A stretch of 44,082 nucleotides of DNA, taken from contig JAKANU010000001.1 in assembly GCA_021812315.1 (NCBI GenBank), positions 1 to 44,082 of the forward strand, given 5' to 3'. A program made the translations under genes and the position numbers. Of this stretch, positions 922-19,638 are shown piece by piece (the stretch's first letter is position 1; the number at the start of each line of letters is the position of its first letter). The notes below the pieces were generated by a model, which was not told the DNA's origin, ran no database searches, and saw only the letters and a program-made list of their open reading frames with translations. This stretch comes from Pseudomonadota bacterium. Lineage in GTDB: Bacteria; Pseudomonadota; Gammaproteobacteria; Burkholderiales; Burkholderiaceae_C.

Positions 922-932
922 TTGCCGCGCGA

Positions 933-971
933 AGGTTGTCACTTGACAACCTAACCGATATTTACTATTCT
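933..971 (+). promoter_or_regulatory. Sigma70-like promoter with palindromic operator upstream of the HicA-like pair
   Basis: Perfect inverted repeat AGGTTGTCA-CT-TGACAACCT (933-952) overlapping TTGACA (943-948). TATTCT lies 17 bp downstream (966-971). Confidence 0.65.
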
Positions 972-981
972 GGAGGCTTCA

Positions 982-1266: not shown

Positions 1267-1268
1267 CA

Positions 1269-1793: not shown

Positions 1794-1843
1794 AAATAGT
1801 AGCACCCCACGCAGGCTGCACGGGCGCTGCAGCCTGATTCGAC
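1787..1843 (+). repeat. ~58 bp dispersed motif, family A (GCTA-N9-TAGC), intergenic copy
   Basis: Colinear with the reverse complement of 4253-4311, including an exact 20-mer GCTGCACGGGCGCTGCAGCC (1815-1834 vs 4264-4283). Confidence 0.8.
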
Positions 1844-1844
1844 T

Positions 1845-3086: not shown

Positions 3087-3426
3087 GCGTAACGCCTCGA
3101 TGTGGGCTTATGTAGCTTTGTCGCTGGGTATAGCGGCGTTGGACACCTGGCGCGGCGTGCGCTTTAGCCTGTGGGCGCTGCACTTTGTGCCTATGGGGTT
3201 GGCGGCCTGGAACCTGGGTGCAAAGGCTGGCTGCACCATGGCCGGGCTTGCCGTAGGCCTGCTGTGTGCCGAGGCGTTTTGGGCCGGGCACCCGTACAGC
3301 AGCGTTTACAACCTGGCGTGGTCTTATGCCTCCAAGGCCGTGGCGTATGCGTTGGTGGTGTACTTTGTAAGTGCCCTGCGCAAGAAGGAAGTGGTTCGTG
3401 CCTATGTGCCGCCGCGTGGCAGTTAG
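3073..3426 (+). CDS. Small multi-pass membrane protein (DUF4118-like sensor-type TM bundle, tentative)
   Basis: About 3-4 hydrophobic segments. AGGAG at 3059-3063 precedes ATG 3073. Confidence 0.55.
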   Translation: MTVFRRNASMWAYVALSLGIAALDTWRGVRFSLWALHFVPMGLAAWNLGAKAGCTMAGLAVGLLCAEAFWAGHPYSSVYNLAWSYASKAVAYALVVYFVSALRKKEVVRAYVPPRGS

Positions 3427-3429
3427 TTC

Positions 3430-3485
3430 GCTACATATTTGCTAGCAGCCAACGCAAGCTGCACAACGGTTGGCCGATGATTTTC
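3430..3485 (+). repeat. Family A motif, intergenic copy
   Basis: GCTACATATTTGCTAGCAGCCAACGCAAGCTGCAC is colinear with the other family A copies. Confidence 0.7.
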
Positions 3486-3487
3486 TT

Positions 3488-4768: not shown

Positions 4769-4817
4769 TTCGTCGTCCCTGAAAAGCCCCCACAACCCGC
4801 ATAAACATTGAGTTGTA

Positions 4818-5024
4818 GTGGTGAAAAGCGCCAAACAAGACGGCCCACAAGACATTACGGTGCATGGCAAATCGGTGGCCGTCGTGCTGTCACGCGATTT
4901 GTTTGATCAGCTCAGTGGCAATTCGCAATCCCTGGTGGAGTTCATGCAGCGCTCCCCCTTGTTTGGCCTGGATGACCTGACTTTCGAGCGCGATCAAAGT
5001 TTGACGCGTGAGCTCGGTCTTTGA
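4818..5024 (+). pseudogene. Phd/YefM antitoxin, N-terminally truncated
   Basis: VVKSAKQDGPQDITVHGKSVAVV is the Phd core. The usual N-terminal xEAKxxLS segment and an RBS are absent. Confidence 0.7.
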
Positions 5025-5225
5025 GTTATCTGATTGATACCAATGTGATTTCTGAGTTGCGTCGCAAGCAGCCAGAAATTCGAAAAGGCATTGCAACCGT
5101 GGGCGATGCCAGCCATCGACAGTTTGTTGGTCGCGACGGCTCTGCATCACAACCTGAGCTTGGTCACCCGCAATGTGCGTGACTTTGCAGGCTTTGGTTT
5201 GAACATCATCAATCCGTGGGATTAA
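5021..5225 (+). pseudogene. vapC: VapC (PIN) toxin pseudogene with internal deletions and a frameshift
   Basis: TTG start overlaps the antitoxin stop. It reads MSYLIDTNVISELRRKQP|EIRKGI, then continues in another frame as MPAIDSLLVATALHHNLSLVTRNVRDFAGFGLNIINPWD*. Total length is only 205 nt. Confidence 0.85.
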
Positions 5226-5234
5226 ATCAAGGTA

Positions 5235-5255
5235 ATTAAGGGGGCGCTACCCTTT
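5235..5255 (+). repeat. Short palindromic junction site, family C
   Basis: ATTAAGGGGGCGCTACCCTTT resembles 6176-6197 and 7770-7791. Confidence 0.55.
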
Positions 5256-5295
5256 GTGGGTAAGCATGCCGGCCCTCTGCCCGCATAATGCAGGC

Positions 5296-5598
5296 ATGCG
5301 ACTAAGCACTGATCAAATCCAGGCAATACGCCATGCTGCCACGGCAGCTTTTGGTGTGGACGCTGCGGTGTGGCTATTCGGCTCGCGCGTGGACGACGGC
5401 AAAAAAGGCGGCGACATTGACCTGCTCGTGCGCCCCAGCGCCGCTGCGGCAGACCAGCCATTTGCCAAGAAAGTCAAAATGCTCAGCCTGCTGGAGCGCG
5501 AACTCGGCGAGCGCAAGATTGACCTTGTCGTTGAACAGCCCGGCGACCCCCGATCCATTGTGATGGTGGCTCATGCCACCGGCATCCAAATCCAATGA
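5296..5598 (+). CDS. Minimal nucleotidyltransferase (MNT) antitoxin
   Basis: MRLSTDQ start, VWLFGSRVDDGKKGGDIDLLV (GS..DxD) and KIDLVV. About 100 aa. Confidence 0.88.
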   Translation: MRLSTDQIQAIRHAATAAFGVDAAVWLFGSRVDDGKKGGDIDLLVRPSAAAADQPFAKKVKMLSLLERELGERKIDLVVEQPGDPRSIVMVAHATGIQIQ

Positions 5599-6068
5599 AG
5601 CCCACGCCAGACCAACTGGCACTGCAGCAAATCGACGCCGTGTGCCAAACCCACGCTGAGACGCTTGACGAAGTCCTGCAGGATATGCATAGGCGTGCGC
5701 TCACGCTTGCCGACTACAGCCATCTGTCCAAAGAAGACCGCCGTTTGCTCGACCAGTTTGCCTACCGCTACACCCGGCTACAAGACGACATCGGTGCCCG
5801 GCTGATGCCCGCGGTGCTCAAAGCCCTGGGCGAAGACGTTGGCCCCATGTCTGCCATCGACCGCTTTACCCGCCTTGAACAACTCGGCTGGCTGAGCAGC
5901 GCAGACGAATGGCTTGCCACGCGGCAAGTGGGCAACCAGTTTGCCCACGACTACCCCGACAGCGCCGCAGAACGGTTTGATCGCCTGCAAGCCGCCACCC
6001 AGGCTGCGCGCCAATTGCTGACCACGATGCACCAATTCAGAAGCAAACTGGCGTCAGACTTCAACTAA
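5595..6068 (+). CDS. HEPN-domain toxin partner of the MNT (catalytic R replaced by G)
   Basis: ATGA overlap with the MNT gene. DQFAYRYTRLQD segment. GNQFAHDY sits where RX4HXY is expected. Confidence 0.8.
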   Translation: MKPTPDQLALQQIDAVCQTHAETLDEVLQDMHRRALTLADYSHLSKEDRRLLDQFAYRYTRLQDDIGARLMPAVLKALGEDVGPMSAIDRFTRLEQLGWLSSADEWLATRQVGNQFAHDYPDSAAERFDRLQAATQAARQLLTTMHQFRSKLASDFN

Positions 6069-6127
6069 CCGAAGAGGCGCGAAAAAAGCAGCCACTCTTG
6101 TCTGTCCCCCTTCCTTGCGGGGACCAC

Positions 6128-6176
6128 GATGCTATTGAATAGATAGCTGCCCACGAAGGCTGCATGGGCACTAAAC
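6128..6176 (+). repeat. Family A motif, intergenic copy truncated at a family C site
   Basis: GATGCTATTGAATAGATAGC is 18/20 identical to the reverse complement of 38158-38177. It continues GGCTGCATGGGCACT like the 1787 copy. Confidence 0.75.
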
Positions 6177-6197
6177 ATTAAAGGGGACGTTACCCAT
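6176..6197 (+). repeat. Family C site, left of the Fic gene
   Basis: CATTAAAGGGGACGTTACCC is 18/20 identical to 7770-7789 in direct orientation. Confidence 0.7.
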
Positions 6198-6285
6198 TTA
6201 TTGAGGCGCACGTTTTTGACCTGATCGAGCCGAATATCAATTTACGCGACAATACGAAGCCGTTAACACCAGTAAAAACGACAAA

Positions 6286-7836
6286 ATGGCCATGGTCAAA
6301 AAATTAGAAGCCAAAAACACGACAAGACGGGACAACTCCCTCTTGCTTTACGCGGAGATGGACAGCGCCCAGGTGCGCGCCGTTCAGCGCAGGCTTCAAT
6401 TGGGCGAGCTTGCGCTTATTGCCAAAGGTATCGCGTCCGACCGCCCACCTGAAGAATGGCCCGCCCTGATTGCCCGCGAGCGTATTCGCGTGCTGGCAGC
6501 TTTGTTTGCAGGTGCCGTCTATGGCTACCGAAGCGCCTTTTCTGGGGGCTTGCCCCAGGACGGCTTGCTGTACCTGAGCTACACCTATAGCCGCACCGTG
6601 GCGCTGCCGGGCTTGACGGTGAGCGTTCTCAAGGGTGCGCCCAGGCAAGTGGGCGATATGCCCATGCAGGGCAAAGATCTGTATTTCCCATCGGAGCCCC
6701 GGCTTTTACTGGAAAACCTGACCCAGAGCCGTGGACCGGTAAAGAAGTCTGCAGGCCGCCAGGCTGTGGAAGCACGCTTGCTCAGCATTTGCGACTCGCG
6801 TGGAGAGGAGTCCTTGTCACGTTTGCGGGAGACTGCCCGAGCCTTGGCTCCTGCTTTGGGTTTTAACAAGGAATTCAACCTGCTTGATGCCATGGTGGGA
6901 AGCATCATCGGATCACGCGTATCGCAGCTCAGCACCCAGTTTGGCAAAGCGCGCACCGCCCAGATACCCTATGACCCAGATCGGCTTGCTTTGTTTGAAA
7001 AGCTGGCTGCCGAGTTACGCGCATGGCCACTGCGTCAACCAGCCAACGTCACTGCCACCAGTCAGGCGCGCGCGCACTTCGCATTTTTGGAATCCTATTT
7101 TTCCAACTTCATCGAAGGAACCGAGTTTGATATTCAGGACGCACGGGGTTTTGTGCTGGACGGCAAGCCCATTGAGGTGCGCCCTAAAGATTCGCATGAC
7201 ATCATCGGCGTCTACAGGCAGGCCCTCAACCCTGGCTGGGCCAACCAGGTGCTCGCTTCTGGTGAGCCGGTTGAGGTTCAATTGCGATCACGCCATGCAG
7301 ACCAGATGGCTGAGCGCCCCGAAACAGCCCCTGGTGAATTCAAGGTTAAAGCCAATCGCGCAGGCAATACCGAGTTTGTCCTGCCAAAGCTGGTTCGGGG
7401 CACGCTCATCGAGGGCTCCAAGCTGTTGCCATCGGTTCCCGCTGGAACAGGGCGTGCCTTGCTGGCCATGTTTTTGGTGTCCGAGGTTCACCCGTTCAAT
7501 GATGGCAATGGTAGGCTGGCCCGATTGGTGATGAACGCCGAGCTTTCCGTGGTTGGTGCGTGTCGCATCATTATTCCAACCCTGTTTCGCGAGGAATACC
7601 TGGACAGTCTGAGAGCGCTCACGCGGGACGCAAACCCCACCCCTTTTGTCGCCGCCATGCAGAAAATCCAAGGCTGGACAGCGGGGTTCAACTACTCCGA
7701 CCTGGATGCGGTCATTGCCCACATGAAAGCCTGCAACGCATTTGAGCGTTCGCGGGTGCAATTTGAGCTCATTAATGGGGACGCTACCCTTCTTCTTGGA
7801 AACATGGGTAGTAAGCAGGGTCTTGATACCATGTAA
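6286..7836 (+). CDS. Fic-domain protein with large N-terminal extension
   Basis: Canonical HPFNDGNGRLAR motif, and the inhibitory (S/T)xxxE(G/N) motif SNFIEG upstream of it. Confidence 0.9.
   Translation: MAMVKKLEAKNTTRRDNSLLLYAEMDSAQVRAVQRRLQLGELALIAKGIASDRPPEEWPALIARERIRVLAALFAGAVYGYRSAFSGGLPQDGLLYLSYTYSRTVALPGLTVSVLKGAPRQVGDMPMQGKDLYFPSEPRLLLENLTQSRGPVKKSAGRQAVEARLLSICDSRGEESLSRLRETARALAPALGFNKEFNLLDAMVGSIIGSRVSQLSTQFGKARTAQIPYDPDRLALFEKLAAELRAWPLRQPANVTATSQARAHFAFLESYFSNFIEGTEFDIQDARGFVLDGKPIEVRPKDSHDIIGVYRQALNPGWANQVLASGEPVEVQLRSRHADQMAERPETAPGEFKVKANRAGNTEFVLPKLVRGTLIEGSKLLPSVPAGTGRALLAMFLVSEVHPFNDGNGRLARLVMNAELSVVGACRIIIPTLFREEYLDSLRALTRDANPTPFVAAMQKIQGWTAGFNYSDLDAVIAHMKACNAFERSRVQFELINGDATLLLGNMGSKQGLDTM
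7770..7791 (+). repeat. Family C site, inside the 3' end of the Fic ORF
   Basis: CATTAATGGGGACGCTACCCTT is a direct repeat of 6176-6197. Confidence 0.7.
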
Positions 7837-7838
7837 CC

Positions 7839-8252
7839 ATGACTGATCGACTGGCCAAAAACTTGTTGCTGTTGCAACTGTTGGCGTTGTTGGCAGGCAC
7901 GCAGATGCCGGGGGCTTGGCGTGCCGCAGCATTGACAGAGCTGGGCCTGGGCGGTGGCATATCGTCGTGGGCGCATTTTGTCTTGTTTGGCGGTATGGCC
8001 GCCTTGGCCTACGCCCGGCCGCTGGCCTGGCCGCTGGTGCGGGTGGTATTGGTGGCGTTGGGGCTGGCTTTGCTGACCGAGGGGCTACAGTTTTTTGCAC
8101 AAGACCGGCACCCGCGTTGGCTGGATGTTGATATCGACATGGCCGGCGCTGCGGCCGGGTTGCTGGTGGTGACCCTCGCCCGCATGGCCCGGGCTCTGCG
8201 CGCGCGCCTGAAGTTTGTACTGAAATCTGCCCCCTATGACGCAAGCGACTGA
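7839..8252 (+). CDS. VanZ family membrane protein
   Basis: AHFVLFGGMA and TEGLQFFAQDRHPRWLDV follow the VanZ pattern H..E..Q..R..D. Hydrophobic helices. Confidence 0.8.
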   Translation: MTDRLAKNLLLLQLLALLAGTQMPGAWRAAALTELGLGGGISSWAHFVLFGGMAALAYARPLAWPLVRVVLVALGLALLTEGLQFFAQDRHPRWLDVDIDMAGAAAGLLVVTLARMARALRARLKFVLKSAPYDASD

Positions 8253-8958
8253 ACCCAAACAAGCCTTCCCTTACAAACCCCCCACCGCCGAGATCAGGGC
8301 CCGCTACGCGCATATTTTTGACCTGACCGAGCCGCTGGCGCCCCGGTTTTTCAAGTCTGCGTTTGACAAGCTGTTGGCGGCAGTCGTGTTGCTGGCGGCG
8401 GTGCCGGTTTTTGTGTTGCTCAAGCTGGCGTACTTGGTGGAGGGCTGGTTGCTGCCCGACAACGCCGGGCCGATGTTTTTTTATTACAACGCGGTCAGCG
8501 CCGGGCGCGTCTTCCCCAAATACAAGATGCGCCTGATCAAGATGAAATACATCGAGCCCGAGGGCGCCAGGCGGCACGACTGGATTGCCTTTTCAGCCGA
8601 GTGGACGCCCGAGAGCCGCACCCATGTGGGCGAGTTTGTGAAAAAGTTTTACCTCGACGAATTGCCCCAGTTTTTCAGCGTGCTAAAGGGCGACATGAGC
8701 GTGGTTGGCCCGCGCCCTTTGGCCATATTGCATTACGAGCGCGATAAGGCGCAGGGCAACGTGACCCGGTTTTTGTTGCGCGGCGGCTTGCTCGGGCTGG
8801 GGCACATCAACAAAGGCACGTCAGAGATGGGCAACCCCATTTATGAGTACGAGTACGTTGACCAGTACATCAAACGCACATCCTTCGGGCTGCTGCTGCT
8901 CGATTTGCGGATCATCTGGCGCGGCTTCTTGGTCATCATCAAGGGCGGCGGGCATTGA
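8236..8958 (+). CDS. Monotopic phosphoglycosyl transferase (priming sugar transferase, Bac_transf family)
   Basis: KSAFD followed by a re-entrant helix, and LDELPQFFSVLKGDMSVVGPRP. Other motifs are divergent. Confidence 0.85.
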   Translation: MTQATEPKQAFPYKPPTAEIRARYAHIFDLTEPLAPRFFKSAFDKLLAAVVLLAAVPVFVLLKLAYLVEGWLLPDNAGPMFFYYNAVSAGRVFPKYKMRLIKMKYIEPEGARRHDWIAFSAEWTPESRTHVGEFVKKFYLDELPQFFSVLKGDMSVVGPRPLAILHYERDKAQGNVTRFLLRGGLLGLGHINKGTSEMGNPIYEYEYVDQYIKRTSFGLLLLDLRIIWRGFLVIIKGGGH

Positions 8959-9060: not shown

Positions 9061-9078
9061 TGCCCCCAAAAAAGCTTC

Positions 9079-9107
9079 TTGCGTTGCCACAACGCGGCGT
9101 GTATACT
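9079..9107 (+). promoter_or_regulatory. Sigma70-like promoter of the export operon, with an overlapping inverted repeat
   Basis: TTGCGT (9079-84), 17 bp spacer, TATACT (9102-07). Palindrome GCGTTG-CCA-CAACGC at 9081-9095. Confidence 0.55.
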
Positions 9108-9164
9108 GTTTTCGTGCTGCTGGGTGAACGAGCCCGGAAGGCGGCTTTTGGAGGGAATACAGAT

Positions 9165-9614
9165 ATGAAAAAACTTACATTTGCGCTTTTATTGGCTGCG
9201 CTTGGCAGTGGTGGCGCTTTGGCGGCAGACCCGGTCGGTGTCGCCCAGACCGTGCAGGGCATCGTCACGGTAAGCCAGGGCAACACCATGGGCAACCTGG
9301 TCAAAGACCTGAAGATTTTCGACGGCATGCGCTTGGCGGCGGCGTCCACCGGCAGTGCGCTGATCAAGTTGAACAATGGCTGCGAAATCTCGCTAGCTGC
9401 CAACGAGTCCATCCTCATAGACGCCGCGCTTGACTGCAAGGCGCTGGTGGCCAGCATCACAAAGCCGCCGGCTGGCGGCGGACTTGCTGGTGGTGGTGGT
9501 GGCGGCGCCTTTGCCGGTGGCGGCTTTGGCGGCGGTTTGCCCATCGCGCTGGGTGTGGGTTACGGCGCCAGCGTCAGACACTGGACTAAGCGGCCAAACT
9601 CCAGCGGTAGTTGA
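9165..9614 (+). CDS. Small secreted protein: signal peptide, beta-rich (FecR N-terminal-like) domain, Gly-rich linker, hydrophobic stretch, C-terminal Ser
   Basis: GAGGGA RBS. MKKLTFALLLAALGSGGALA|A is a Sec signal. Two Cys. The tail is GGLPIALGVGYGASVRHWTKRPNSSGS*. Confidence 0.8.
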   Translation: MKKLTFALLLAALGSGGALAADPVGVAQTVQGIVTVSQGNTMGNLVKDLKIFDGMRLAAASTGSALIKLNNGCEISLAANESILIDAALDCKALVASITKPPAGGGLAGGGGGGAFAGGGFGGGLPIALGVGYGASVRHWTKRPNSSGS

Positions 9615-10984
9615 CCTTGCAGCGGCTACAGGCAAAGCAGACGGGGCTCTTGGGCCCCGTTTCTTTTGGTGCCGGAGTGCTGCTGCTGGTTCTTGTTCCG
9701 ATCTTTCGTGCGGGTAATCGATATGTGCCGCTGATCGGGCTTGAGTGGCTGGCGCTGTTGGTGCTTTGGCTGCTTGCAATGCGATCTTTGGCTGGCTCGC
9801 CAACGCTGGCCAATCGCCGCGACGTGGCGCCGTTGGGCATCGGCGAATGGCTGCTGGTCTTGTCGCCGCTTTGGGCTGCGCTGCTCTTTCTCACGCCCTT
9901 GCCCATGGCGTTCTGGGCCGGGTTGCCCGGGCACGCCGCATATCCGAGTGCGCCGGGTGTTGGCTGGCGCTCTCTCTCGCTCACACCCGATGCCACTGTT
10001 GCATCTTTGCTGGCGGGCATCTTACCGGTCACTGGGTTCATGCTTGCGCGTACGGCTACTTCAGCACAGTTGCGCACACTCGCCACTGTCTGGGTGCTGC
10101 TGGCTTTGTTGCAGTCCGTTTGGGGATTGCTGCAGGCGGGGCCATTCAAGGAGCTTGGCTTCGGTGTTAGTGTTGATGCCGCTGGCGGGGTGATTGGCAG
10201 CTTTGGTGGTCGCAACAATTTTGCGAACTTCATTGCCATGGCCTTGCCGCTGGCAATATTGATGCTCTGGCGGTCCTTGCCTGGGGTGGGCAGGGCGCAG
10301 TCACGGCGTTCGATGTGGGTTACAGCGCTTTGGTCGCTGGCGCTATTGGTGTTGGCCGCGGCGGTGCTGGCATCGCTTTCGCGAGCTGGCACTGTCGCCG
10401 CGATAGTCGTGTCGTTGCTTACGGTGCTGCTGCTTCTGAACACGGTTGCCAAACCGCACCGCCGTTGGTACGCACTTGGCGCCGCGGTTCTTGTGGTTCT
10501 GGCAGTATTGATAAGCGCCGGGGTGATGACCCTTATTGCGCGCTTTGAGGACGATGCTTTGACGCAGGGAGTGGCGGGCCGTTGGCAACTGACCGAGAGT
10601 AGTTGGCAAGCGGCGCAGGCGTTTTGGCCCACAGGCAGCGGCCCCGGCAGTTTTGCCAACGTTTACCCGCAATTCCAGCCCCCGGGAATGCTGGCTTCGA
10701 TTGAGCATGCGCACAATGACTATGTTGAACTGCTGATGGAGTTTGGTGCCCTGTTTGTTGTGGTTGCGGCGTTGGCCGCCGGCTTGATTGCGCGCCAGGC
10801 TATTTGGTTGTGGCATCAGGCGAGCCGCGTGAGCCGTATGCCGGGTTCGCTGCAGTTGCAATTGTGCTGTGCACTGGGTTTGCTGGCAGTGCTTTTGCAC
10901 AGTTGGGTGGACTACAATTTTCGCATTCCCGCCAACGCCACGCTTGCGGCCTGCCTGCTCGGTGCTTTTTTGCGCCGCAAATGA
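9611..10984 (+). CDS. O-antigen ligase / O-oligosaccharyltransferase family membrane protein (Wzy_C)
   Basis: About 11-12 TM segments, GSFGGRNNFA, SLSRAG, GSGPGSF, HAHNDYVELLMEFG and HSWVDYNFRIPAN. TTGA overlap with the upstream gene. Confidence 0.88.
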   Translation: MTLQRLQAKQTGLLGPVSFGAGVLLLVLVPIFRAGNRYVPLIGLEWLALLVLWLLAMRSLAGSPTLANRRDVAPLGIGEWLLVLSPLWAALLFLTPLPMAFWAGLPGHAAYPSAPGVGWRSLSLTPDATVASLLAGILPVTGFMLARTATSAQLRTLATVWVLLALLQSVWGLLQAGPFKELGFGVSVDAAGGVIGSFGGRNNFANFIAMALPLAILMLWRSLPGVGRAQSRRSMWVTALWSLALLVLAAAVLASLSRAGTVAAIVVSLLTVLLLLNTVAKPHRRWYALGAAVLVVLAVLISAGVMTLIARFEDDALTQGVAGRWQLTESSWQAAQAFWPTGSGPGSFANVYPQFQPPGMLASIEHAHNDYVELLMEFGALFVVVAALAAGLIARQAIWLWHQASRVSRMPGSLQLQLCCALGLLAVLLHSWVDYNFRIPANATLAACLLGAFLRRK

Positions 10985-11028
10985 AATATGATCCCCTCTC
11001 GGACTTTATTGAAGGCAGGGACGGATTG

Positions 11029-11829
11029 ATGATCAGATTTTTGCTCGGTGCGCTGGCTCTGTGGCTGGCCCTGTCGCAGCCGATGTTGGTCTTCGCGCAA
11101 GGCTCCGGCTCTGCCAAGACGCCCGGGATGACATTCACGCAATCACTTGCCCCCGTGAGCGCACCGGCAGCTGAATCAGTGCCCGGGGTGCCGATGACGG
11201 CGGCATCTTCACCAACGGCGGGCCGTGCAGTCCCGCTGGGTACGTTGGCCAGTTTGGGTGCCGACTATCGCATCGGCCCCAATGATTTGCTCGACGTTGA
11301 AGTGTTCGGCGTGCCAGACCTGAAGCGCTCGGTGCGTGTCAATTCGTCGGGCCAGATCTCGCTGGCGCTGGTGGGCAATGTGGTGGTGGCGGGGCTGTCG
11401 GCACAGCAGGCCGAGGAACTGGTTGCCGAAAAATACTCAAAGAACTATTTGCAAGACCCGCAGGTGTCAGTGTTCATTCGCGAGTTCACCACGCAGCGCA
11501 TTACTGTCGAAGGTGCAGTAGCGCGGCCCGGGATTTACCCGGTCACGGGGCAGGTGACGCTGTTGCGTGCCCTGGCGCTGGCTGGCGGCGGCGCGCCGAT
11601 GGCCAACTTGAGCGAGATCATGGTGTTTCGTGACGCACCTGGCGCAGCCCGGGTAACTCAGATCTACGACCTGGAGAAAATTCGTGCTGGGGAACTGCCG
11701 GACCCGCTGGTGCTGGCCGACGATGTGATTGTGGTCAAGCGCGATTCGGCACGTGCCGCGTTGCGCGACTCCTTGTTCCGCGATGTGATTGATTCGATCA
11801 ATCCGTTTTCAGTGCTTGTGCCCCGCTAG
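11029..11829 (+). CDS. wza: Polysaccharide export protein (Wza/OPX family, Poly_export + SLBB)
   Basis: DYRIGPNDLLDVEVF..RVNSSGQISLALVG..YLQDPQVSV..VEGAVARPGIYP. Signal peptide without a lipobox Cys. Start chosen from the RBS; 10981 is possible. Confidence 0.88.
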   Translation: MIRFLLGALALWLALSQPMLVFAQGSGSAKTPGMTFTQSLAPVSAPAAESVPGVPMTAASSPTAGRAVPLGTLASLGADYRIGPNDLLDVEVFGVPDLKRSVRVNSSGQISLALVGNVVVAGLSAQQAEELVAEKYSKNYLQDPQVSVFIREFTTQRITVEGAVARPGIYPVTGQVTLLRALALAGGGAPMANLSEIMVFRDAPGAARVTQIYDLEKIRAGELPDPLVLADDVIVVKRDSARAALRDSLFRDVIDSINPFSVLVPR

Positions 11830-11864
11830 ATTTCGTTGGCCTGTTTGTCCTCCAACACTTACCT

Positions 11865-14279
11865 ATGACTACCTCTGACAATTCTGTTGCCGGACCTGGC
11901 GGGCCGACGGTCCCGGACCAGGGCCCGGTGACTATACCGGCCAACGGTCGCGCTACCGCAGTGCAATTGCGGCAGCAGTCGTTTGCTTTGCAAGCCAACC
12001 TGGCGCGAGCTGAGGCGACGCAGGAATTTGATGATTCTGTCTCCATCCGGGAGCTGTTTCATATCCTCACCCGTTACAAATGGGTGCTGCTGGCCATGGC
12101 TGTTCTTGGCGTCGCGGCGGCTCTGGTGTTTGGCCTGACCAGCACGCCGGTGTATCAGGCCACTGCGGTGCTGCAAATTGACCGTGCTACGCAGCGCGTT
12201 GTCCAGTTTGCCAAGGACATTGACCCGTTTCAGGAAAGCGACACGCTGATTCTGCAGACGCAATACGAGTTGTTGCGCAGCCGTTCGCTGGCCGAGCGCG
12301 TGATTGACGACTTGCGTCTTGATGCGCCAAACGGTGGGGGCGTGGGCGTGGAACCAGGAGCACCTGTCGCGGTAGCGGCGCAAGCCAGTGCCAGCGCTGC
12401 TTCGGCAAGCAAGGTCGGCTGGTGGGACGAACTGGTTGCCGGGTACGACCGGTTGGGCAAGCCATCGGTAAATGATCGTACCGTCTTGGGCCACGAAGAA
12501 GTGCTGCGCCGTTTTATGAAAGCGTTGACGGTCGAACCTGTGCGCAATTCGCGCCTGGTCAAGGTCAAGTTCAAGGACGCAAGCGCTGCGCATGCCGCCC
12601 GTGTCACGAATGCCATTGCCCAAACATTTATTACCCTTGGAATGGAGCGACGTACCCAGTCGTCGGATTACGCCAAGTCGTTCTTGGAAGATCAGATCAA
12701 GGCCACCAAGGCCAAGCTTGAGGCGTCGGAGCGCGCGCTCAACACCTATGCCCGGGAAAATTCGCTGTTGACGCTGGATGAGAAGACCAATGTCATCAAT
12801 CAGACTTACACGGATTATTCGTCGGCAATCGCGGCAGCGGAGCAGGAGCGGGTAAAGGCAGAGTCGATCTATATCGGCGTGGCGGCGAATCCGGCGGGTG
12901 CGACGCAGGTTCTTGAAAACAGGACGGTGCAGGCGTATAAGGAGCAGAGGGCGAAGATCGAGGCCGAATACCTTGCCAACCTTGCCACCTACAAGCCCGA
13001 ATTTCCGAAGATGCAGCAGTTGAGAGCGCAGATCAAGGAAATCGATCAGCTCATCAAGGCGGAGACCGCTTCCGTAGTGGCGTCCATCAAGGGCCACTTT
13101 GACGCGGCAAAGAAGCAGGAAGACCAGTTGCGCGCGCGCCTGCAGGCTACGCGCAAGGAAGTGCTGATCGCGCAGGACAAGAACGTGAACATGAACCTGC
13201 TCAAGCGCGAGGTTGACACGAACCGCCAGTTGTACGACGGGCTGTTGCAACGCATCAAGGAAGTGGGCGTGACCAGTGGCGTCACGTCGAACAACATCTC
13301 GGTGGTGGACAGCGCGACGACGCCCTTGTTCCCGGTTTCGCCCAATTTCTTGCTCAATGCCGGTATTGGTCTGCTGGCGGGTTTGCTGCTTGGCATGGGC
13401 TTTATCGTGCTGCGCGAGCAACTCGACGATTCGGTGCACGACGCCGTCACCATCGAGACCAAGCTTGGGCTGGCGCTGCTGGGGATCATTCCCCTGGTGA
13501 AGAAGAAGGGGCAGCAAACCTTCTTGGCGCTGCTGGCGGTGGAAGACCCGCGCAGCATGTTCTCGGAGGCGTATCGGTCGATGCGCACGGCTTTGCAGTT
13601 CTCGACCGCTGAGGGTGCGCCACGGCGGCTGATGGTGACGAGCAGCGTCAAGGGCGAGGGCAAATCGACCACGGCGCTGGCGCTGTCGATCAATTTTGCG
13701 CAGTTGGGCGAGCGCGTGCTGCTGATTGACGCGGATCTGCGCAATCCATCGCTGCACCGGGCAGTGGCGCGCTCCAACGAGGCCGGCTTGTCGACTTATT
13801 TGTCGGGCGATACGCGGATGGTGGAATTGATCCAGACCGTGGACATCCCGAACCTGGCGGTGATGACGGCTGGCAGGCATCCACCTAACCCGGTGGACCT
13901 GCTGATGGGACCGCGTCTGATGGAACTGTTTGAACGCGCCGAAGCACTGGGCTTTGAACGCATCGTGATCGACGCGCCGCCGATTCTGGGGATTGCGGAC
14001 TCGATCGTGCTGGGCAATCAGGTGCAGAACATTCTGTTTGTGGTGAAGTCGGGCGAAACGCGGCTATCGAGCATCCGCGACGCGCTGCGGCGCTTGCGCC
14101 TGAGTGGCCTCGTGCCCTTGGGTGTGGCGCTGACCCGGGTGGGGAGCACCAGCAGCTACGGCTACTACTACAACTACTACGGCGGATCTTACGGCGATTC
14201 GAAAGCAGCGCCCAAGGCAGATCGCCAACTGACCGGTAGCCCGTCGCGGCGCAAGGAGCCTGCTGGCCAAGCGGCTTGA
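11865..14279 (+). CDS. wzc: Polysaccharide co-polymerase / BY tyrosine kinase Wzc
   Basis: Two TM segments flanking a coiled coil, Walker A GEGKST, LIDADLRNP, VIDAPP, and the C-terminal Tyr cluster SSYGYYYNYYGGSYG. Confidence 0.95.
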   Translation: MTTSDNSVAGPGGPTVPDQGPVTIPANGRATAVQLRQQSFALQANLARAEATQEFDDSVSIRELFHILTRYKWVLLAMAVLGVAAALVFGLTSTPVYQATAVLQIDRATQRVVQFAKDIDPFQESDTLILQTQYELLRSRSLAERVIDDLRLDAPNGGGVGVEPGAPVAVAAQASASAASASKVGWWDELVAGYDRLGKPSVNDRTVLGHEEVLRRFMKALTVEPVRNSRLVKVKFKDASAAHAARVTNAIAQTFITLGMERRTQSSDYAKSFLEDQIKATKAKLEASERALNTYARENSLLTLDEKTNVINQTYTDYSSAIAAAEQERVKAESIYIGVAANPAGATQVLENRTVQAYKEQRAKIEAEYLANLATYKPEFPKMQQLRAQIKEIDQLIKAETASVVASIKGHFDAAKKQEDQLRARLQATRKEVLIAQDKNVNMNLLKREVDTNRQLYDGLLQRIKEVGVTSGVTSNNISVVDSATTPLFPVSPNFLLNAGIGLLAGLLLGMGFIVLREQLDDSVHDAVTIETKLGLALLGIIPLVKKKGQQTFLALLAVEDPRSMFSEAYRSMRTALQFSTAEGAPRRLMVTSSVKGEGKSTTALALSINFAQLGERVLLIDADLRNPSLHRAVARSNEAGLSTYLSGDTRMVELIQTVDIPNLAVMTAGRHPPNPVDLLMGPRLMELFERAEALGFERIVIDAPPILGIADSIVLGNQVQNILFVVKSGETRLSSIRDALRRLRLSGLVPLGVALTRVGSTSSYGYYYNYYGGSYGDSKAAPKADRQLTGSPSRRKEPAGQAA

Positions 14280-15691
14280 GTGCAGGCGCTGATGCCATGG
14301 CTGCGCTCGCTAGCAACAGCTCAGGCAATGCCGGGCAGCATCGTCTGCTGGAGGCACTGTTTGACTTTGAAGCCTTGCCTGGGCGCTACCCGCTGACCTT
14401 GCGCGAGCCGCGCGCGCTGTTTGACCACAGCCACCAGGTGCTCATGCTGGCGGCGGGCCGCCCGGTGAAGGAACTGGAACTGGCTGCGGAGGACGCGGCA
14501 CGGGCGCAGCGCGCTGCCTGCTTCTTTGTGCGCATGGCCATGCTCCGATCCGGCGCCGACCATTACACCTTGCTTGGGCTGCCGCGGGACTTTCAGGCCG
14601 ATACCCTGCGTGATCATTACCGGCTTCTGATGCGGCTGACGCATCCGGACTTTGCTGGCGACGCAAGCCAGTGGCCACGCGATGCTGCGACGCGCATCAA
14701 TCAGGCCAATGATGTGTTAAGTTCGCGCGCACAGCGCGGCGAGTACGACCGGCAACTGGCAAGCGTGGCACCGCGGCCGATGCCAGTCAACAGCCTGGCC
14801 GCCGTGTTGCCCACGCCGCGCAAGCCTCGACCGGTGAAAGTGAAATGGGTTTGGGTAATGGGCACCGGGGCGGCCGGTGCGGTGCTGCTGGGGCTGAGCT
14901 TCATGCTGACCGGGAGCCCGGACGTTGCCGAGACCAGTGAGTTGGCCAGCACGGCGCAAGGCGTGGCGGTACGTGCTGACGAGCCGGTGCCGGCTTCCGT
15001 GCCGGCACAAGCCTCGACCCATGCCCTGCTGCCAACGCTGCGGATAGATCATGATTTGGTAGTCTCTGCGCCGGTGGCCCCGGCAATTCGCCCGGCCAGG
15101 GTGGCGCGGGTCAGGACCGAAGACCCGGCACCGGCGAGCCCGGTTGAACAGGCGCTGGCACCGCGCCGTGTCGAGCCTGCCGCCCCGGACCCTGTGCGGG
15201 CCGAACCAGCGCCAGTGTTGGCGCCTGTGGCCGAGCCGTTGATGGTGGTCGCGCCTGCGGTGGTGGCCCCGACTGTGTCTGTGACACCGGTTGCGACTGC
15301 GGCCGTGCCCGCCAGCAAGCCGGCGCGCCGTCTTAGTCTGGCCGATGCGCAGTCGGCGATGGGTGAGCTGATGCAGGCCATGCAGGCGGGCCGTGGTGAG
15401 GATCTGCTCGCGGCGATGGATCGGGCGCTGCGGCGCAGTGAGGGTGCCATCAATCTGGTCAATGCGTACAACCTGCTGGTGGGCGATTCGCGCGCCGTGC
15501 GCCTGGGGCCGGTGCGGCTGCGTGGCTATCCGGATGCGGACCGTCTGGTGGTTGATGGCACGGTGCAATTGGTGTTGTACGACCAGGGTCAGCCCGCGCC
15601 GGTGCGCGAGTTGCGCTTGCGTGCGCTGTTTGCCCAGCGTGGCGGACAGGTGGTGATGACGGATATTTCTGCCGGAGGGGCGCGGCCATGA
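14276..15691 (+). CDS. Membrane-anchored J-domain (DnaJ-like) protein with Pro/Ala-rich linker and C-terminal domain
   Basis: DHYTLLGL..LRDHYRLLMRLTHPDF..RINQANDVLS..RGEYD is a J domain with intact HPD. TM segment WVWVMGTGAAGAVLLGLSFML. Start codon uncertain. Confidence 0.8.
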   Translation: MSAGADAMAALASNSSGNAGQHRLLEALFDFEALPGRYPLTLREPRALFDHSHQVLMLAAGRPVKELELAAEDAARAQRAACFFVRMAMLRSGADHYTLLGLPRDFQADTLRDHYRLLMRLTHPDFAGDASQWPRDAATRINQANDVLSSRAQRGEYDRQLASVAPRPMPVNSLAAVLPTPRKPRPVKVKWVWVMGTGAAGAVLLGLSFMLTGSPDVAETSELASTAQGVAVRADEPVPASVPAQASTHALLPTLRIDHDLVVSAPVAPAIRPARVARVRTEDPAPASPVEQALAPRRVEPAAPDPVRAEPAPVLAPVAEPLMVVAPAVVAPTVSVTPVATAAVPASKPARRLSLADAQSAMGELMQAMQAGRGEDLLAAMDRALRRSEGAINLVNAYNLLVGDSRAVRLGPVRLRGYPDADRLVVDGTVQLVLYDQGQPAPVRELRLRALFAQRGGQVVMTDISAGGARP

Positions 15692-15695
15692 GCCT

Positions 15696-16847
15696 ATGGG
15701 TTCAGTGAGCATCCGTGTTGCGCTGGGCATCGCGGCCACGGCATTGGCGCTGGCTTTGGGCTGGCTGGCGTGGGGCTACAACCTGGAGCGCGCCTGCACG
15801 CTGGGTCAGTGGCCCGAGTTGCCTTCTTGCGCCAGCCCGACCAACGATGTGCAGGCACAGGCGAGTGCGCTGCGCAAACGCATTGCGCGCAACCCCGGGG
15901 ACTCCGAGGCGTGGATCAATCTGGCGATGCTGGAGCAGGGCGCGGCGCTGGAGATGGCAACGAAGCTGGCCGGGCAGGATTATCGTGTCCAGCGCTTGCA
16001 GGCGGGCCGTGCCATTGAGCGGCAGCAGTGGCCACAGGCCGTCGGTTGGTTGGTGCGGCTGGTGCAGGACAACCGCGACGCCCCGGCCGCGTTGGCGTTG
16101 GCGAAGATGGTGCTCGAGCCCAGCGCGTTGGCGGCGATGATTGCGCAACTTGAAAATGACTCGCGCTGGCTGGAGCCGGTCATCAACTCGATGCCGCAGG
16201 CCCGCGTACCGGTGATCAAGGCGATGCCGCTGGTGGTGCGTGCGCTGGCGCTGAAAGCGGTTCCGCCCGCCCTGTTGCAGCGCCTGTTGACGGGGTTGAA
16301 AGCCGAGGGCCAATGGATGGAGGCGCACGCTTTGTGGCTGGCCTCGCTGGGGCATTCGGTGCCGCTGATATTCAACGGCGATTTTGAGCAGGGCTTCATG
16401 CCTGGCGGCTTTGATTGGGAAGTGCTGCCGGTGCTGCCATCGAGGGCCGGGGCGCTGGTGCATCAGGCCACCGCCAGCGGGCGTGGCGGCGTGCTCGAGG
16501 TTGACTTCACCGGCCGCGCGGTGACCTTGCCGATCGTGCGCCAGTATGTGATGTTGATGGGCAACCGCTATACGCTGAGCGGAGAATTCATGACGATGCG
16601 CTTGCGTACCGAGCAGGGCCTGACCTGGGCGCTGCGCTGCGTGGTGGGTGGCCGCGAAGTGGCGCATACGCCACCGTTGAAGGACACCTCCGGCCAGTGG
16701 CAGCCGATGGAACTTGCGTTTGATGTGCCGGCGGGTTGTGGGCCGGCGCTGGTTCTGCAATTGCAAACGGTGTTGCCCGAGGAGGCGCTTGGCGGCCTGC
16801 GCGGGGAGGTTCGTTTTGACAATCTGCAATTGCAGGTGCGACCATGA
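15696..16847 (+). CDS. Membrane-anchored periplasmic protein, TPR-like helices plus C-terminal CBM_4_9-like beta domain
   Basis: N-terminal TM segment, RNPGDSEAWINLA (TPR-like), and LIFNGDFE...EVRFDNLQL (CBM-like ends). Confidence 0.65.
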   Translation: MGSVSIRVALGIAATALALALGWLAWGYNLERACTLGQWPELPSCASPTNDVQAQASALRKRIARNPGDSEAWINLAMLEQGAALEMATKLAGQDYRVQRLQAGRAIERQQWPQAVGWLVRLVQDNRDAPAALALAKMVLEPSALAAMIAQLENDSRWLEPVINSMPQARVPVIKAMPLVVRALALKAVPPALLQRLLTGLKAEGQWMEAHALWLASLGHSVPLIFNGDFEQGFMPGGFDWEVLPVLPSRAGALVHQATASGRGGVLEVDFTGRAVTLPIVRQYVMLMGNRYTLSGEFMTMRLRTEQGLTWALRCVVGGREVAHTPPLKDTSGQWQPMELAFDVPAGCGPALVLQLQTVLPEEALGGLRGEVRFDNLQLQVRP

Positions 16848-17638
16848 TCGACCTGCATAGTCACATTTTGCCCGGCATCGATGACGGCGCGCCGACGCTG
16901 GAGGTGGCGCTGGAGATGGCACGGCTGGCGGTTGGCGATGGTATTCGGACCATGGCCTGCACGCCGCATATTTATCCCGGGCTGTACATGAACGACGCGC
17001 CGGGCATTGCGACTGCACGTGTGGCGTTGCAACGCGAACTCGACGCACGCGGCATCGGCTTGCAACTGGTCAGCGGTGCCGATGTGCATCTGGTGCCGGG
17101 TTTGCTTGAGGGCCTGCGCGGCGGAACCATACCGACGCTGCATGGCTCGCGCTACCTGTTGCTGGAGCCACCGCACCATGTGGCCCCGCCGCGGTTTGCC
17201 GAATCGGTACGGCAACTGATGATGGCGGACTATGTGCCGGTGATCACGCATCCGGAGCGGCTGAGCTGGATCGAAACGCATTACAAGGTTTTTGTCGAAC
17301 TCGTCGGCCAGGGTGCCTGGATGCAGGTGACAGCCGGTGCCGTGGCAGGGCATTTTGGGCAACGCCCGCGGTATTGGGGCGAGAAGTTTCTGGGCGAGGG
17401 CCACACGCATATTCTCGCCACCGACGCGCACGCGAGTTCCGGGCGAATTCCCTGCTTGTCGCAAGGGCGCGTGGTGGCCGAGCGGCTGCTCGGTGCCGAC
17501 GAGGCGCGCCGGCTGGTGCAGGAACGTCCGCAGGCGATTGTGGACAATCTTGCCCCCAACGCCTGCCCCCTACCGCCCCGAAGTGAAGCACCGCGCAGTT
17601 GGTGGCAAAGGCTGTGGCCAGGCCGGGGCGAGGCGTGA
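16844..17638 (+). CDS. PHP-family protein tyrosine phosphatase (CpsB/CapC/YwqE type)
   Basis: MIDLHSHILPGIDDGA, CTPH, ITHPER and ATDAH metal-binding motifs. Confidence 0.93.
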   Translation: MIDLHSHILPGIDDGAPTLEVALEMARLAVGDGIRTMACTPHIYPGLYMNDAPGIATARVALQRELDARGIGLQLVSGADVHLVPGLLEGLRGGTIPTLHGSRYLLLEPPHHVAPPRFAESVRQLMMADYVPVITHPERLSWIETHYKVFVELVGQGAWMQVTAGAVAGHFGQRPRYWGEKFLGEGHTHILATDAHASSGRIPCLSQGRVVAERLLGADEARRLVQERPQAIVDNLAPNACPLPPRSEAPRSWWQRLWPGRGEA

Positions 17639-17656
17639 TCGCCTGAAGCAACGCGC

Positions 17657-18400
17657 ATGTTCTCGAAGATCGTGATCTTTCTGGTCTCGCCGCTGGGTGC
17701 CGCGCTTTGTTTGGGTGCCCTGGCGTTGCTGCTGGCCTGGCGCAAGTGCTTGCGCGCCGGCTTCAGGGTCGGGCTGCTGGCTCTGCTGTGGTTGTGGCTC
17801 TGGTCAACCCCGGTGCCAAGCCTGTGGCTGCGCGGCTGGATTGAGGACGAGTATTTACCGCTGCCATTGTCGGCCATTGCACCCGCGCAGGCGCTGGTGG
17901 TGCTGGGTGGCGGCGTTGCTCCGGCCACCGGTCGATCGGCCGACATCAACCTGTATGCTGCGGCTGACCGTGTTTGGTATGCGGCCAGGCTTTTTCATGC
18001 GGGCAAGGCGCCGTTGTTGCTCCTTAGCGGGGGCAGCGTGCCCGGGCGCGATCTGTTTTCGGAAGCCCGTGCCATGGCCATCTTGCTGCATGACTTGGGT
18101 GTGCCGGAGCAGGCTTTGCTGCTGGAAGAGGCCAGTCACAACACCCGAGAGAATGCGGCGTTCAGTGCGTCGTTGCTCAAGGCGCGTGGCATCGAGCGCA
18201 TTGTGCTGGTGACCTCGGCCCTGCATATGCCGCGTGCCCAGGCGTTGTTTGCCGCGCAGGGGTTGCAGGTCGTGCCCGCACCGACCGACTTTGAGGCCCA
18301 TTTGCGACCCCCTGGTCTTCAGGCCTGGTTACCCGATGCGCAGGCTTTGGAGGGCAGCGGCCGGGCGATGAAGGAATGGGTTGGCAAGTGGTCACGATGA
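17657..18400 (+). CDS. YdcF/DUF218 (ElyC-like) membrane protein
   Basis: Two N-terminal TM segments, LVVLGGG, LLSGG, EEASHNTRENA and LVTSALHMPRA. Confidence 0.9.
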   Translation: MFSKIVIFLVSPLGAALCLGALALLLAWRKCLRAGFRVGLLALLWLWLWSTPVPSLWLRGWIEDEYLPLPLSAIAPAQALVVLGGGVAPATGRSADINLYAAADRVWYAARLFHAGKAPLLLLSGGSVPGRDLFSEARAMAILLHDLGVPEQALLLEEASHNTRENAAFSASLLKARGIERIVLVTSALHMPRAQALFAAQGLQVVPAPTDFEAHLRPPGLQAWLPDAQALEGSGRAMKEWVGKWSR

Positions 18401-18413
18401 AGGTAGTGAAGCC

Positions 18414-19448
18414 ATGAACATTCTTCTTACCGGTGGCGCGGGATATATTGGCAGCCACACGTTTGTGGCGCTGGCTGCTGCGGGATTCACGCCGATGATC
18501 CTTGACGACTTTTCAAACAGCAGTGCGGATGTGTTGGCACGGCTTGAGGCGCTGACCGGTACGCCGGTGCTGTGCGAGCGAGGCGATGTGGCCGACGTGG
18601 CGCTGGTGGGCGCGCTCATCGCGCAGCACACCATCGCGGCGGTGGTGCATTTTGCGGGCTTCAAGGCGGTCGGCGAGAGTGTGGCGCAACCGCTCAAGTA
18701 CTACCGCAACAATGTGGGTGGCATTATCGCCTTGCTGCAGGCGATGGACGCGGCCAACTGCCGCACGCTGGTGTTCTCCAGCAGCGCCACCGTGTATGGC
18801 GACCCGGCTTCGGTGCCCATTACCGAAGACTTTGCGCGCAGCCACACCAACCCGTATGGCCACGGCAAGCTGGTATGCGAGGACATGCTTGCGGCGCTGG
18901 GCACGTCAAACAAGGCCTGGCGCTTTGGCGTGTTGCGCTACTTCAACCCGGTGGGGGCGCACCCCAGCGGTCTGATTGGCGAAGACCCGGCCGGTGTGCC
19001 CAACAACCTGATGCCTTACGTGGCGCAGGTGGCGGTGGGGCAGCGCGAGTTTTTGAACGTGTGGGGCAACGATTACGCCACGCCCGATGGCACCGGCGTG
19101 CGCGACTACATCCACGTGCAGGACCTGGCCGCTGGCCATGTGGCGGCGTTGCAGGCGCTGCTGCACGGCGGTGCCGGTGGCGGCAGCTTTACTGTGAATC
19201 TGGGTACTGGCAAGGGTCACAGCGTACTGGAGGTGGTGCGCGCTTTTGAGCAGGCCAGCGGCAAAAAGGTGCCGTACCGCATCGGCCCGCGCCGTGCCGG
19301 TGATGTGGCGCAGTGTTATGCCGACGCCTCGCTGGCCGCGCGCCTACTTGGCTGGCGCGCCACCCAAACCCTGCCCGACATGTGCCGCGATGCGTGGCGC
19401 TGGCAATCCAGAATCCATGGATCGCCACGACCTGCGGCCTCGCGATGA
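18414..19448 (+). CDS. galE: UDP-glucose 4-epimerase
   Basis: TGGAGYIGSH, HFAGFKAVGESV, FSSSATVYG, YGHGK (YxxxK), LRYFNPVGAH and DGTGVRDYIHV. The C-terminus runs into a repeat. Confidence 0.95.
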   Translation: MNILLTGGAGYIGSHTFVALAAAGFTPMILDDFSNSSADVLARLEALTGTPVLCERGDVADVALVGALIAQHTIAAVVHFAGFKAVGESVAQPLKYYRNNVGGIIALLQAMDAANCRTLVFSSSATVYGDPASVPITEDFARSHTNPYGHGKLVCEDMLAALGTSNKAWRFGVLRYFNPVGAHPSGLIGEDPAGVPNNLMPYVAQVAVGQREFLNVWGNDYATPDGTGVRDYIHVQDLAAGHVAALQALLHGGAGGGSFTVNLGTGKGHSVLEVVRAFEQASGKKVPYRIGPRRAGDVAQCYADASLAARLLGWRATQTLPDMCRDAWRWQSRIHGSPRPAASR

Positions 19449-19485: not shown

Positions 19486-19490
19486 GGCGG

Positions 19491-19635: not shown

Positions 19636-19638
19636 AAA

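Follow-up and report, generated by a model that had tools for sequence, protein, structure and literature searches.

A Conserved Wza-Wzc Gene Module with a Wzy_C Ligase and a Small Serine-Tailed Protein, a Candidate Anchoring System for Wzy Capsules

Introduction

The 44,082-nucleotide stretch of DNA analysed here (positions 1 to 44,082 of contig JAKANU010000001.1, assembly GCA_021812315.1; hereafter the window) comes from a gammaproteobacterium of the family Burkholderiaceae_C, and at positions 9165..18400 it carries a block of polysaccharide export genes that belongs to an unnamed module, widespread and present in many aquatic and soil bacteria. The module comprises a GumB/Wza-type channel, the co-polymerase Wzc, a Wzy_C enzyme, and a protein encoded directly 3' of wzc that joins a transmembrane (TM) helix to TPR repeats and a CBM4-like domain (hereafter the TPR-CBM protein). 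A gene for a small secreted protein with a serine near its C-terminus accompanies the gene of the Wzy_C enzyme. On the reading that we favor, to which we give an even chance, this enzyme would move the finished chain from undecaprenyl pyrophosphate onto the small protein's serine at position -3, thereby tethering the capsule; the covalent link is inferred from sequence comparisons. The module is conserved and, as far as searched, undescribed, with known parts and one step that would be new. Our literature search returned no description of this gene set or of a protein-linked Wzy capsule, most subscription papers being outside its reach. How a Wzy capsule is released from its lipid carrier and retained on Gram-negative cells is stated to be unknown in the available text of PMC12220298. 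The module names one enzyme, one acceptor and one residue, and thus makes the capsule-retention question testable.

Spread of the Module and Its Core Parts

The TPR-CBM protein is the marker by which the module can be followed. It matched 14 of 301 genomes of the family, in 12 of which the match was real and in two a weak one confined to the TPR part. A wider profile found full-length genes in 31 of 401 genomes of the phylum at E < 1e-19, clearly separated from generic TPR matches, which begin at 5e-11. Locus counts were taken over 48 loci, 31 from a first round and 17 fetched later; a duplicate locus in genome G252 and the two weak TPR-only loci were left out, three of the 48 are truncated by contig ends, and three genomes supply two loci each. 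The TPR-CBM gene was present at 47 of these loci, wzc at 45, wza at 42 and the ligase gene at 39, and in six of the nine ligase-less loci the same genome has a ligase gene elsewhere, adjoining a small gene. At the later loci, which come mostly from three families and are not independent, the TPR-CBM gene stood immediately 3' of wzc in 17 of 17 cases. Plasmid-borne members occur in named Mesorhizobium, Bradyrhizobium, Sphingomonas and Sphingobium, and named matches of the TPR-CBM protein include Polaromonas, Hydrogenophaga and Thiobacillus; a search of named genome contigs with the TPR-CBM protein gave no match.

An initial annotation of the window had treated all eight families of the block as a unit and expected them to occur together. 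This holds for the TPR-CBM gene, which follows wzc nearly everywhere, but not for the accessory genes: the gene of a J-domain protein and that of a PHP-family phosphatase were each found at 14 of the 48 loci and a DUF218 gene at four, which rules them out as core parts.

Several of the loci show peculiarities of their own. Genome G252 carries the entire module twice (L024, L025); the copies are inverted relative to each other, are separated by about 50 kb and have two tandem small genes apiece. The wzc or ligase genes are fragmented at L018 (6207-8629), L087/L118 and L077, presumably by frameshifts or sequence errors. In sphingomonad-type loci, a second small secreted family with R-I-x-N-R repeats and no family match is encoded directly 3' of the TPR-CBM gene (L070 10213-10560; L072 10276-10713; L132 11122-11454; L133 13116-13424), and its copy at L133, a plasmid locus of Sphingobium yanoikuyae, likewise terminates in S-P-R.

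The Small Serine-Tailed Protein

The predicted glycan acceptor is a 149-residue secreted protein (9165..9614) without a Pfam or NCBIfam match. It has a signal peptide, a beta-domain at about residues 21-96 of retention-module or FecR-like type with a Cys73-Cys91 pair, a Gly/Ala-rich, weakly hydrophobic segment, and the end S-S-G-S. Its relatives are numerous (770 with E <= 0.001 in a set of representatives at 50% identity), and the feature they share at the C-terminus is the serine at -3, present in 141 of 164 homologues examined and in 96 of the 116 whose profile match ends before the tail, against a background serine frequency of 8.7%. The apparently invariant serine of alignment A3, which holds 83 of these 164 sequences hand-picked partly for complete tails, was excluded as evidence. 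Ahead of the fixed serine lies a linker of a few to about 40 residues, and the last residue is mostly Q, S, R or N. In the window the predicted glycosylation site is accordingly Ser147, with its codon at 9603..9605. Seven homologues (P0126, P0127, P0134, P0198, P0238, P0254 and P0258) have two tandem beta-domains ahead of the same serine tail.

The N-terminal domain resembles PDB 5IX9, with a Foldseek TM score of 0.80 by target (E 5e-3) and a structural alignment of Z 10.3 (rmsd 2.2, 72 residues aligned), the next structure reaching Z 3.7; the small-protein profile also finds 5IX9 by sequence at E 1.6e-4. The retention_LapA model was matched by 48 of 83 members, under its cut-off. A full-length match to A3 at E < 1e-20 was confined to 11 of the 301 genomes, and the TPR-CBM gene is present in ten of these, some of whose proteins were in the profile. 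All 18 partial, FecR-type matches examined were without a serine tail and without a ligase.

Alphaproteobacterial forms are shorter, with a signal peptide, a polar stretch, a hydrophobic helix and an acidic tail ending in SP, SN, SD or similar; they have lost the plug-like beta-domain and kept the serine tail. No Pfam or NCBIfam family names these proteins, and the small proteins match no pilin or PEP-CTERM model. A profile made from ten of them gave matches in 22 of the 401 phylum genomes. Thirty matches were read, of which 26 are short, true serine-tailed proteins with ends from S-x to S-P-G-x (16 of them outside the profile) and four match in the signal peptide only. The true ones come from 19 genomes, and all 19 hold the TPR-CBM gene. 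A scan of the window's own genome (G000) for further serine-tailed substrates gave none convincing among five candidates.

The topology of the small protein bears on a quite unlikely alternative, in which it would be a non-covalent, single-pass membrane subunit whose tail serves for docking or proteolysis, by way of the ligase, a peptidase or a cytoplasmic partner, while the enzyme releases the chain to water or to another acceptor. The good TM helix of the alphaproteobacterial small proteins fits such a subunit. In the window-like forms the hydrophobic segment is weak, with a median of +2.8 on a crude scale versus -0.7 to -1.8 for TPR-CBM and Wzc helices, and it might cross into the periplasm, in line with the reading that we favor. 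The charge of the tail was uninformative as a test of topology (K/R above D/E in 73, equal in 37 and below in 34 of 144 proteins), and the picking of sequence windows had misplaced some segments. Secreted PDZ-M48 peptidase genes near serine-tailed small genes were noticed in two alphaproteobacterial families (L068 3156-4151, L142, L168, L169 and L181), adjoining them at the last four of these loci, and such a peptidase might recognize the tail or shorten it. That it acts as a processing step everywhere was rejected since G000 has no orthologue, which also counts against the alternative, and the peptidase was retained as a lineage partner. Furthermore, the long Gly/Pro or acidic linkers appear extracytoplasmic, and for an invariant hydroxyl residue encoded beside an enzyme with PglL-type residues a glycosylation sequon is the simpler reading.

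Pairing of the Small Gene with the Ligase Gene

The small gene and the ligase gene form a pair that is kept even when it leaves the exporter genes. The ligase gene lies directly 3' of the small gene in nine of the ten other genomes of the family whose small gene is full-length, and in six of those family genomes the pair sits far from the wza-wzc-J-TPR run. The adjacency recurs in alphaproteobacterial and other loci, and at most alphaproteobacterial loci the ligase gene is within the wza-wzc run. Unlinked copies also occur: genome G081 has two, and two alphaproteobacterial ones precede a second ligase gene. Genome G476, which had been chosen as a supposed negative, has the small gene and the ligase gene together with a short TPR gene. 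In genome G248 (contig C18 51805-53668, L092) the tail of the small gene runs on without a stop, by decay or assembly error. Taken together with the fixed C-terminal serine, the OTase-type residues of the enzyme and the near-constant place of the TPR-CBM gene after wzc, these comparisons support the pairing of ligase with acceptor, and accessory-gene conservation, well past what the sequence alone could show.

In the window, a terminator-like hairpin followed by a T tract, a predicted attenuator, lies 3' of the small gene (9639..9662). Hairpins with z < -2 were found at 11 of 22 small-gene ends and at none of 15 other junctions, which suggests that the small protein is produced in excess over the ligase. 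Such abundance would also fit the structural subunit considered above.

The pair's independence also fits a different proposal, unlikely though to be taken seriously, that it is a dedicated protein O-glycosylation system borrowing one or a few capsule repeat units, as TfpO does for its pilin; the glycoprotein would then belong to the envelope or coat, and the bulk of the polymer would leave through Wza unlinked. The six family genomes with a distant pair, the exporter-less pair of G248, the several unlinked acceptor copies per genome, and the single-unit transfer usual for native O-oligosaccharyltransferases (PMC9829042, available text) all agree with it. It accounts less well for the tight co-occurrence of acceptor, ligase, TPR-CBM and this type of Wzc (10/11 family genomes and 19/19 genomes of the alphaproteobacterial profile), and for the position of the ligase gene inside the wza-wzc run at most alphaproteobacterial loci.

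The Wzy_C Enzyme

The ligase gene (9611..10984) encodes a Wzy_C protein (E 3e-18) that resembles both O-antigen ligases and O-oligosaccharyltransferases (O-OTases). A single-sequence search of the PDB gave no match; with a profile, the best matches were WaaL (7TPG, E 8e-12) and an O-OTase (9RMK, E 3e-10). The catalytic Arg/Arg/His set is kept almost throughout (R258 in 74, R324 in 77 and H368 in 77 of 77 ligases). According to the available text of PMC3643930, this set is common to WaaL and PglL, while N180, H400 and E404 are PglL-specific. The equivalents of these three are retained in the module ligases (N202 in 76, H430 in 76 and D/E434 in 77 of 77; D434 in the window), whereas Q178 and P406 mostly are not. 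TIGR03097, a link to PEP-CTERM/exosortase systems, was weakly matched by eight of the 77. In a quick tree, 27 module ligases grouped apart from five other Wzy_C proteins.

Two further alternatives concern the enzyme. It may be thought of as a paralogue of WaaL by which capsule units are ligated to the lipid A-core, K-LPS-like (LPS, lipopolysaccharide), the small gene being a co-regulated passenger; we regard this as very unlikely, WaaL's place as top PDB match being offset by the retained PglL-type N202, H430 and D434, by the strict pairing with a serine-tailed protein, and by a separate WaaL-like gene in G000. That genome has five other Wzy_C genes, among them PglL-like ones and the WaaL-like one, which has an MsbA-like ABC gene for a neighbor. 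Least probable of all appears an ordinary group 1-like capsule locus in which the Wzy_C gene encodes the polymerase and the extra genes are loose neighbors. The Wzy_C family does cover polymerases, none other was seen in the window, and the authors of a study on Sphingomonas sp. LM7 read the comparable gene RS19300 as a polymerase, 'wzyB' (PMC11340318, available text). Yet the ligase gene matches one profile at E < 1e-25 at 39 of 48 loci while the flanking sugar genes vary, and it leaves wza-wzc in the company of the small gene. In addition, eight of 40 other membrane proteins scanned at module loci (out of 70 candidates), at eight loci, are divergent Wzy_C or Wzy polymerase-like proteins. Given such second Wzy-like genes and the separate WaaL-like gene, the module enzyme would be spare for both the polymerase and the LPS ligase roles.

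The TPR-CBM and J-Domain Proteins

The TPR-CBM protein (15696..16847, 383 residues) has no family match. Its AlphaFold2 model (pLDDT 94) has an N-terminal membrane helix, helical repeats and a beta-sandwich whose best structural matches are CBM4 modules, in agreement with the initial description as TPR/CBM-like; a periplasmic location is predicted. In the atlas of protein clusters, many unnamed or TPR-named clusters share this build, and one 857-residue cluster fuses a Wzy_C protein to it, which counts in favor of the tethering reading.

The J-domain membrane protein (14276..15691; DnaJ, PF00226, E 1.5e-9) has its HPD motif at residues 123-125 ahead of a TM helix, followed by a Pro-rich linker and a C-terminal domain. 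The motif is kept ahead of the membrane helix in all 13 copies compared (the window's and 12 homologues), and the gene, where present, always lies between wzc and the TPR-CBM gene. An action of DnaK on Wzc through this protein is plausible. The initial annotation had proposed that DnaK takes part in assembly or regulation; with the J-protein absent from 34 of 48 loci, DnaK is not part of the core, and its involvement would be a lineage-specific add-on.

Proposed Mechanism and Its Weak Points

Wzy chains are extended at their reducing end, on undecaprenyl pyrophosphate; it is therefore possible for the far end to go first through Wza, and the reducing end must be detached in the last step. We judge it a balanced question whether detachment and anchoring both come from an OTase-like enzyme and the abundant serine-tailed partner dedicated to it. 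In the scheme suggested by the gene families, the flanking glycosyltransferase (GT) and phosphoglycosyl transferase genes, together with a flippase and a polymerase that is separate and variable, would build the chain on undecaprenyl pyrophosphate, and Wzc with the PHP phosphatase would set its length and supply Wza. The small protein would arrive in the periplasm intact, its tail serving as the sequon; the enzyme would terminate the chain by transferring the reducing end to the serine, freeing the lipid carrier, and the membrane-bound TPR-CBM protein would keep chain and acceptor at the enzyme and Wzc. The least certain step is the retention of the protein end in the envelope, presumably through the hydrophobic segment in a membrane, to which, in window-like forms, a plug-like beta-domain too large for the secretion pore may add. 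In some lineages a cytoplasmic J-domain may recruit DnaK to the Wzc kinase ring. The initial annotation had likewise proposed a polymer linked to a surface protein; the conserved gene pair, the fixed serine and the OTase-type residues favor this, and the bond itself is a prediction from them.

Stated more broadly, and with somewhat less confidence than an even chance, this would be a new way of anchoring Gram-negative Wzy capsules: a dedicated transferase attaches the reducing end covalently to the serine of a C-terminal signal, and the capsule becomes one giant glycoprotein. The signal, composed of a hydrophobic segment, a free linker and S-x or S-x-x-COOH, with an adhesin-type retention plug in some carriers, would be a new sorting motif, possibly borne by several unlinked proteins per genome.

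A number of observations weigh against this proposal. As to the acceptor, FecR-type proteins share its fold (A3 matches in 133 of 301 genomes), many members have no plug domain, and the crude scale that rated the hydrophobic segment as weak also scored the J-protein TM helix at +1.9. Topology is the weak point of the model: the segment of the alphaproteobacterial forms makes a good TM helix, and a helix of this kind behind a signal peptide would leave the serine in the cytoplasm, off the enzyme's periplasmic site. As to the enzyme, PglL_A (PF15864) is weakly matched by only 11 of 77 ligases and not by the window's copy, which also has Gly at the family's N200, and the support for ligase monophyly (88) is not firm. 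As to linkage, a linked small gene was seen at only five of 15 later, held-out loci, in G476 27 kb separate the pair and a short TPR gene from a distant Wzc, neither TPR-CBM nor Wzc was found with the pair in G248, and there are kin among the sampled genomes, so that loci are not independent. As to the mechanism, the model has no explanation for the passage of a protein-capped chain through Wza, a permanent plug would use up Wza channels and fits poorly with an acceptor in excess, and O-OTases generally transfer one repeat unit in the native host (PMC9829042, available text). On the other side, gene pairs of an OTase following its acceptor, with C-terminal Ser/Thr sequons, have precedent in the same source.

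If the enzyme does transfer full-length polymer to a short C-terminal tag in its own host, it would offer a new tool for glycoconjugates, and many 'wzy' or 'O-antigen ligase' annotations beside wza-wzc would need renaming.

Organization of the Gene Block and Its Surroundings

The genes and signals of the block, as well as the sugar genes upstream of it, lie on the + strand. All eight open reading frames (ORFs) initially described between 9165 and 18400 are present and tightly packed, each once in G000, with 4-bp overlaps at four junctions (small gene/ligase, ligase/wza, wzc/J given a TTG start, and TPR/PHP) and gaps of 35, 4 and 18 nt at the others. The galE gene for UDP-glucose 4-epimerase (18414..19448, family match) starts with an ATG at 18414, 13 nt past the DUF218 gene, making the run nine genes rather than eight. 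Pfam and NCBIfam profile matches agree with the families first guessed. Besides the genes described above, the block encodes a short Wza of the outer membrane polysaccharide export (OPX) type (10981..11829; Poly_export, E 5e-24) with one SLBB domain and a C-terminal amphipathic helix that is also present in homologues; a lipobox cysteine was not seen in the window's copy. Wzc (11865..14279) has Wzz, GNVR and kinase domains, with the Walker A motif GEGKST and a Tyr cluster visible. The optional parts are a CpsB/CapC tyrosine phosphatase of the PHP family (16844..17638; CpsB_CapC, E 4e-46) and an ElyC/YdcF-like DUF218 protein (17657..18400; E 8e-36).

A promoter of the block's own, as initially claimed, is a plausible candidate at 9079..9107: an extended -10 element with TG ahead of it, TTGCGT-17-TATACT, can be read there, and together with a GGAGGG ribosome site is legible at 9079-9156. 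It falls under the threshold of the promoter scanner, which listed no site ahead of 9165 and one in 8800-20400 versus 1.8 expected. As first noted, no glycosyltransferase is encoded inside the block. The upstream repeat-unit genes (97..8958) are the likely source of sugar units, and include a GT2 (97-921), a GT4 (1845-3086), a WcaI-like GT4 (3470-4768), VanZ (7839-8252) and a phosphoglycosyl transferase (8236-8958). The window does not contain a Wzx flippase or Wzy polymerase that would serve this polymer, and its contig ends inside sugar genes; a Wzx-like ORF with ten TM helices lies on contig C80, and flippases and second Wzy-like genes occur at related loci. Wzi was found in none of five module genomes, but likewise in none of 14 control genomes. 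The sugar genes are interrupted and followed by genes of toxin-antitoxin-like and Fic type (982-1793, 5254-6068, 6286-7836 and 19639-20188), including those for a nucleotidyltransferase and its partner ORF, for a protein of the Fic family, and for BrnT together with a CopG/BrnA antitoxin. An unnamed gene pair among the sugar genes, without a family match, we take from its look to be HicA/HicB-like.

Comparison with Known Systems

A match to a characterized locus would have removed the novelty first claimed for the block, and none of the systems compared is shown to match. Group 1 export of E. coli and Klebsiella (Wza-Wzb-Wzc, Wzi) shares an OPX protein with a C-terminal helix, a PCP-2a (polysaccharide co-polymerase) Wzc kinase, a tyrosine phosphatase and nearby Wzx/Wzy-type synthesis genes. 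The module differs in its short Wza and PHP-type phosphatase, and in adding the ligase, the serine-tailed protein, the TPR-CBM protein and the J-protein. Group 1 capsules are retained non-covalently, and Wzi accounts for this only in part (PMC12220298, PMC13721041); in their available text, two reviews name Wzi and LPS contacts and no protein linkage, and one calls the mechanism not known.

Retention modules of adhesins of the type I secretion system (T1SS), such as MpIBP RIN (PDB 5IX9) and LapA (NF033682), share the beta-sandwich fold and detectable sequence similarity with the N-domain of the small protein. The 5IX9 domain is periplasmic and stops an ice-binding adhesin from leaving its pore, the plug being too large for TolC (PMC5550230, available text). 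The module protein, in contrast, is a Sec-exported protein of 149 residues without repeats or a T1SS signal, falls below the NCBIfam cut-off, and has a fold that is also FecR-type. PEP-CTERM/exosortase systems likewise use a C-terminal signal on secreted proteins, and exopolysaccharide (EPS) loci of this kind have a ligase and a TPR protein; the module has no PEP motif, no basic cluster past the helix, and no exosortase in the loci examined.

The Caulobacter locus CCNA_00162-00168, found in named Caulobacter records by a primer search, also combines wza, wzc, a PHP phosphatase and an O-antigen ligase-like gene, the last of which is needed for the capsule besides a separate polymerase, CCNA_00470 (PMC4241560, available text). 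It was rejected as a characterized match: the CCNA_00162 orthologue is a 422-residue, beta-barrel-like protein that ends in Phe and is not a TPR-CBM protein, Wzc is only 24% identical to that of the module, and two Caulobacter genomes yielded neither the TPR-CBM nor the serine-tailed protein. Immediately upstream of the CCNA_00162 orthologue, an ORF on the - strand (L078 10095-10733) encodes an Ala-rich secreted protein of 213 residues with two terminal cysteines.

The pairs TfpO/PilA, TfpM/Pil and PglS/ComP, and PglL, have a Wzy_C enzyme with the catalytic Arg/Arg/His, encoded right after its cognate acceptor as in the module. TfpO and TfpM modify a C-terminal Ser/Thr of the adjacently encoded pilin (PMC9829042, available text), and a Ser/Thr at or near the C-terminus is shared with the module acceptor. 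The latter is, however, not a pilin: it has a Sec-type signal peptide, its hydrophobic segment lies near the C-terminus, its serine stands at -2 or -3 and is not the last residue, and a Wza-Wzc exporter and the TPR-CBM protein go with the pair. Finally, in cluster B of Sphingomonas sp. LM7 the relevant gene is called a polymerase and no acceptor is described in the available text (PMC11340318). Its order of an EpsG-family gene, GT4, RS19300, one further gene and wzc fits the ligase-wza-wzc order of the named Sphingomonas plasmid loci, and deletion of RS19300 removes the cell-associated but not the secreted polysaccharide (PMC11340318); on its gene order, cluster B may be a member of the module.

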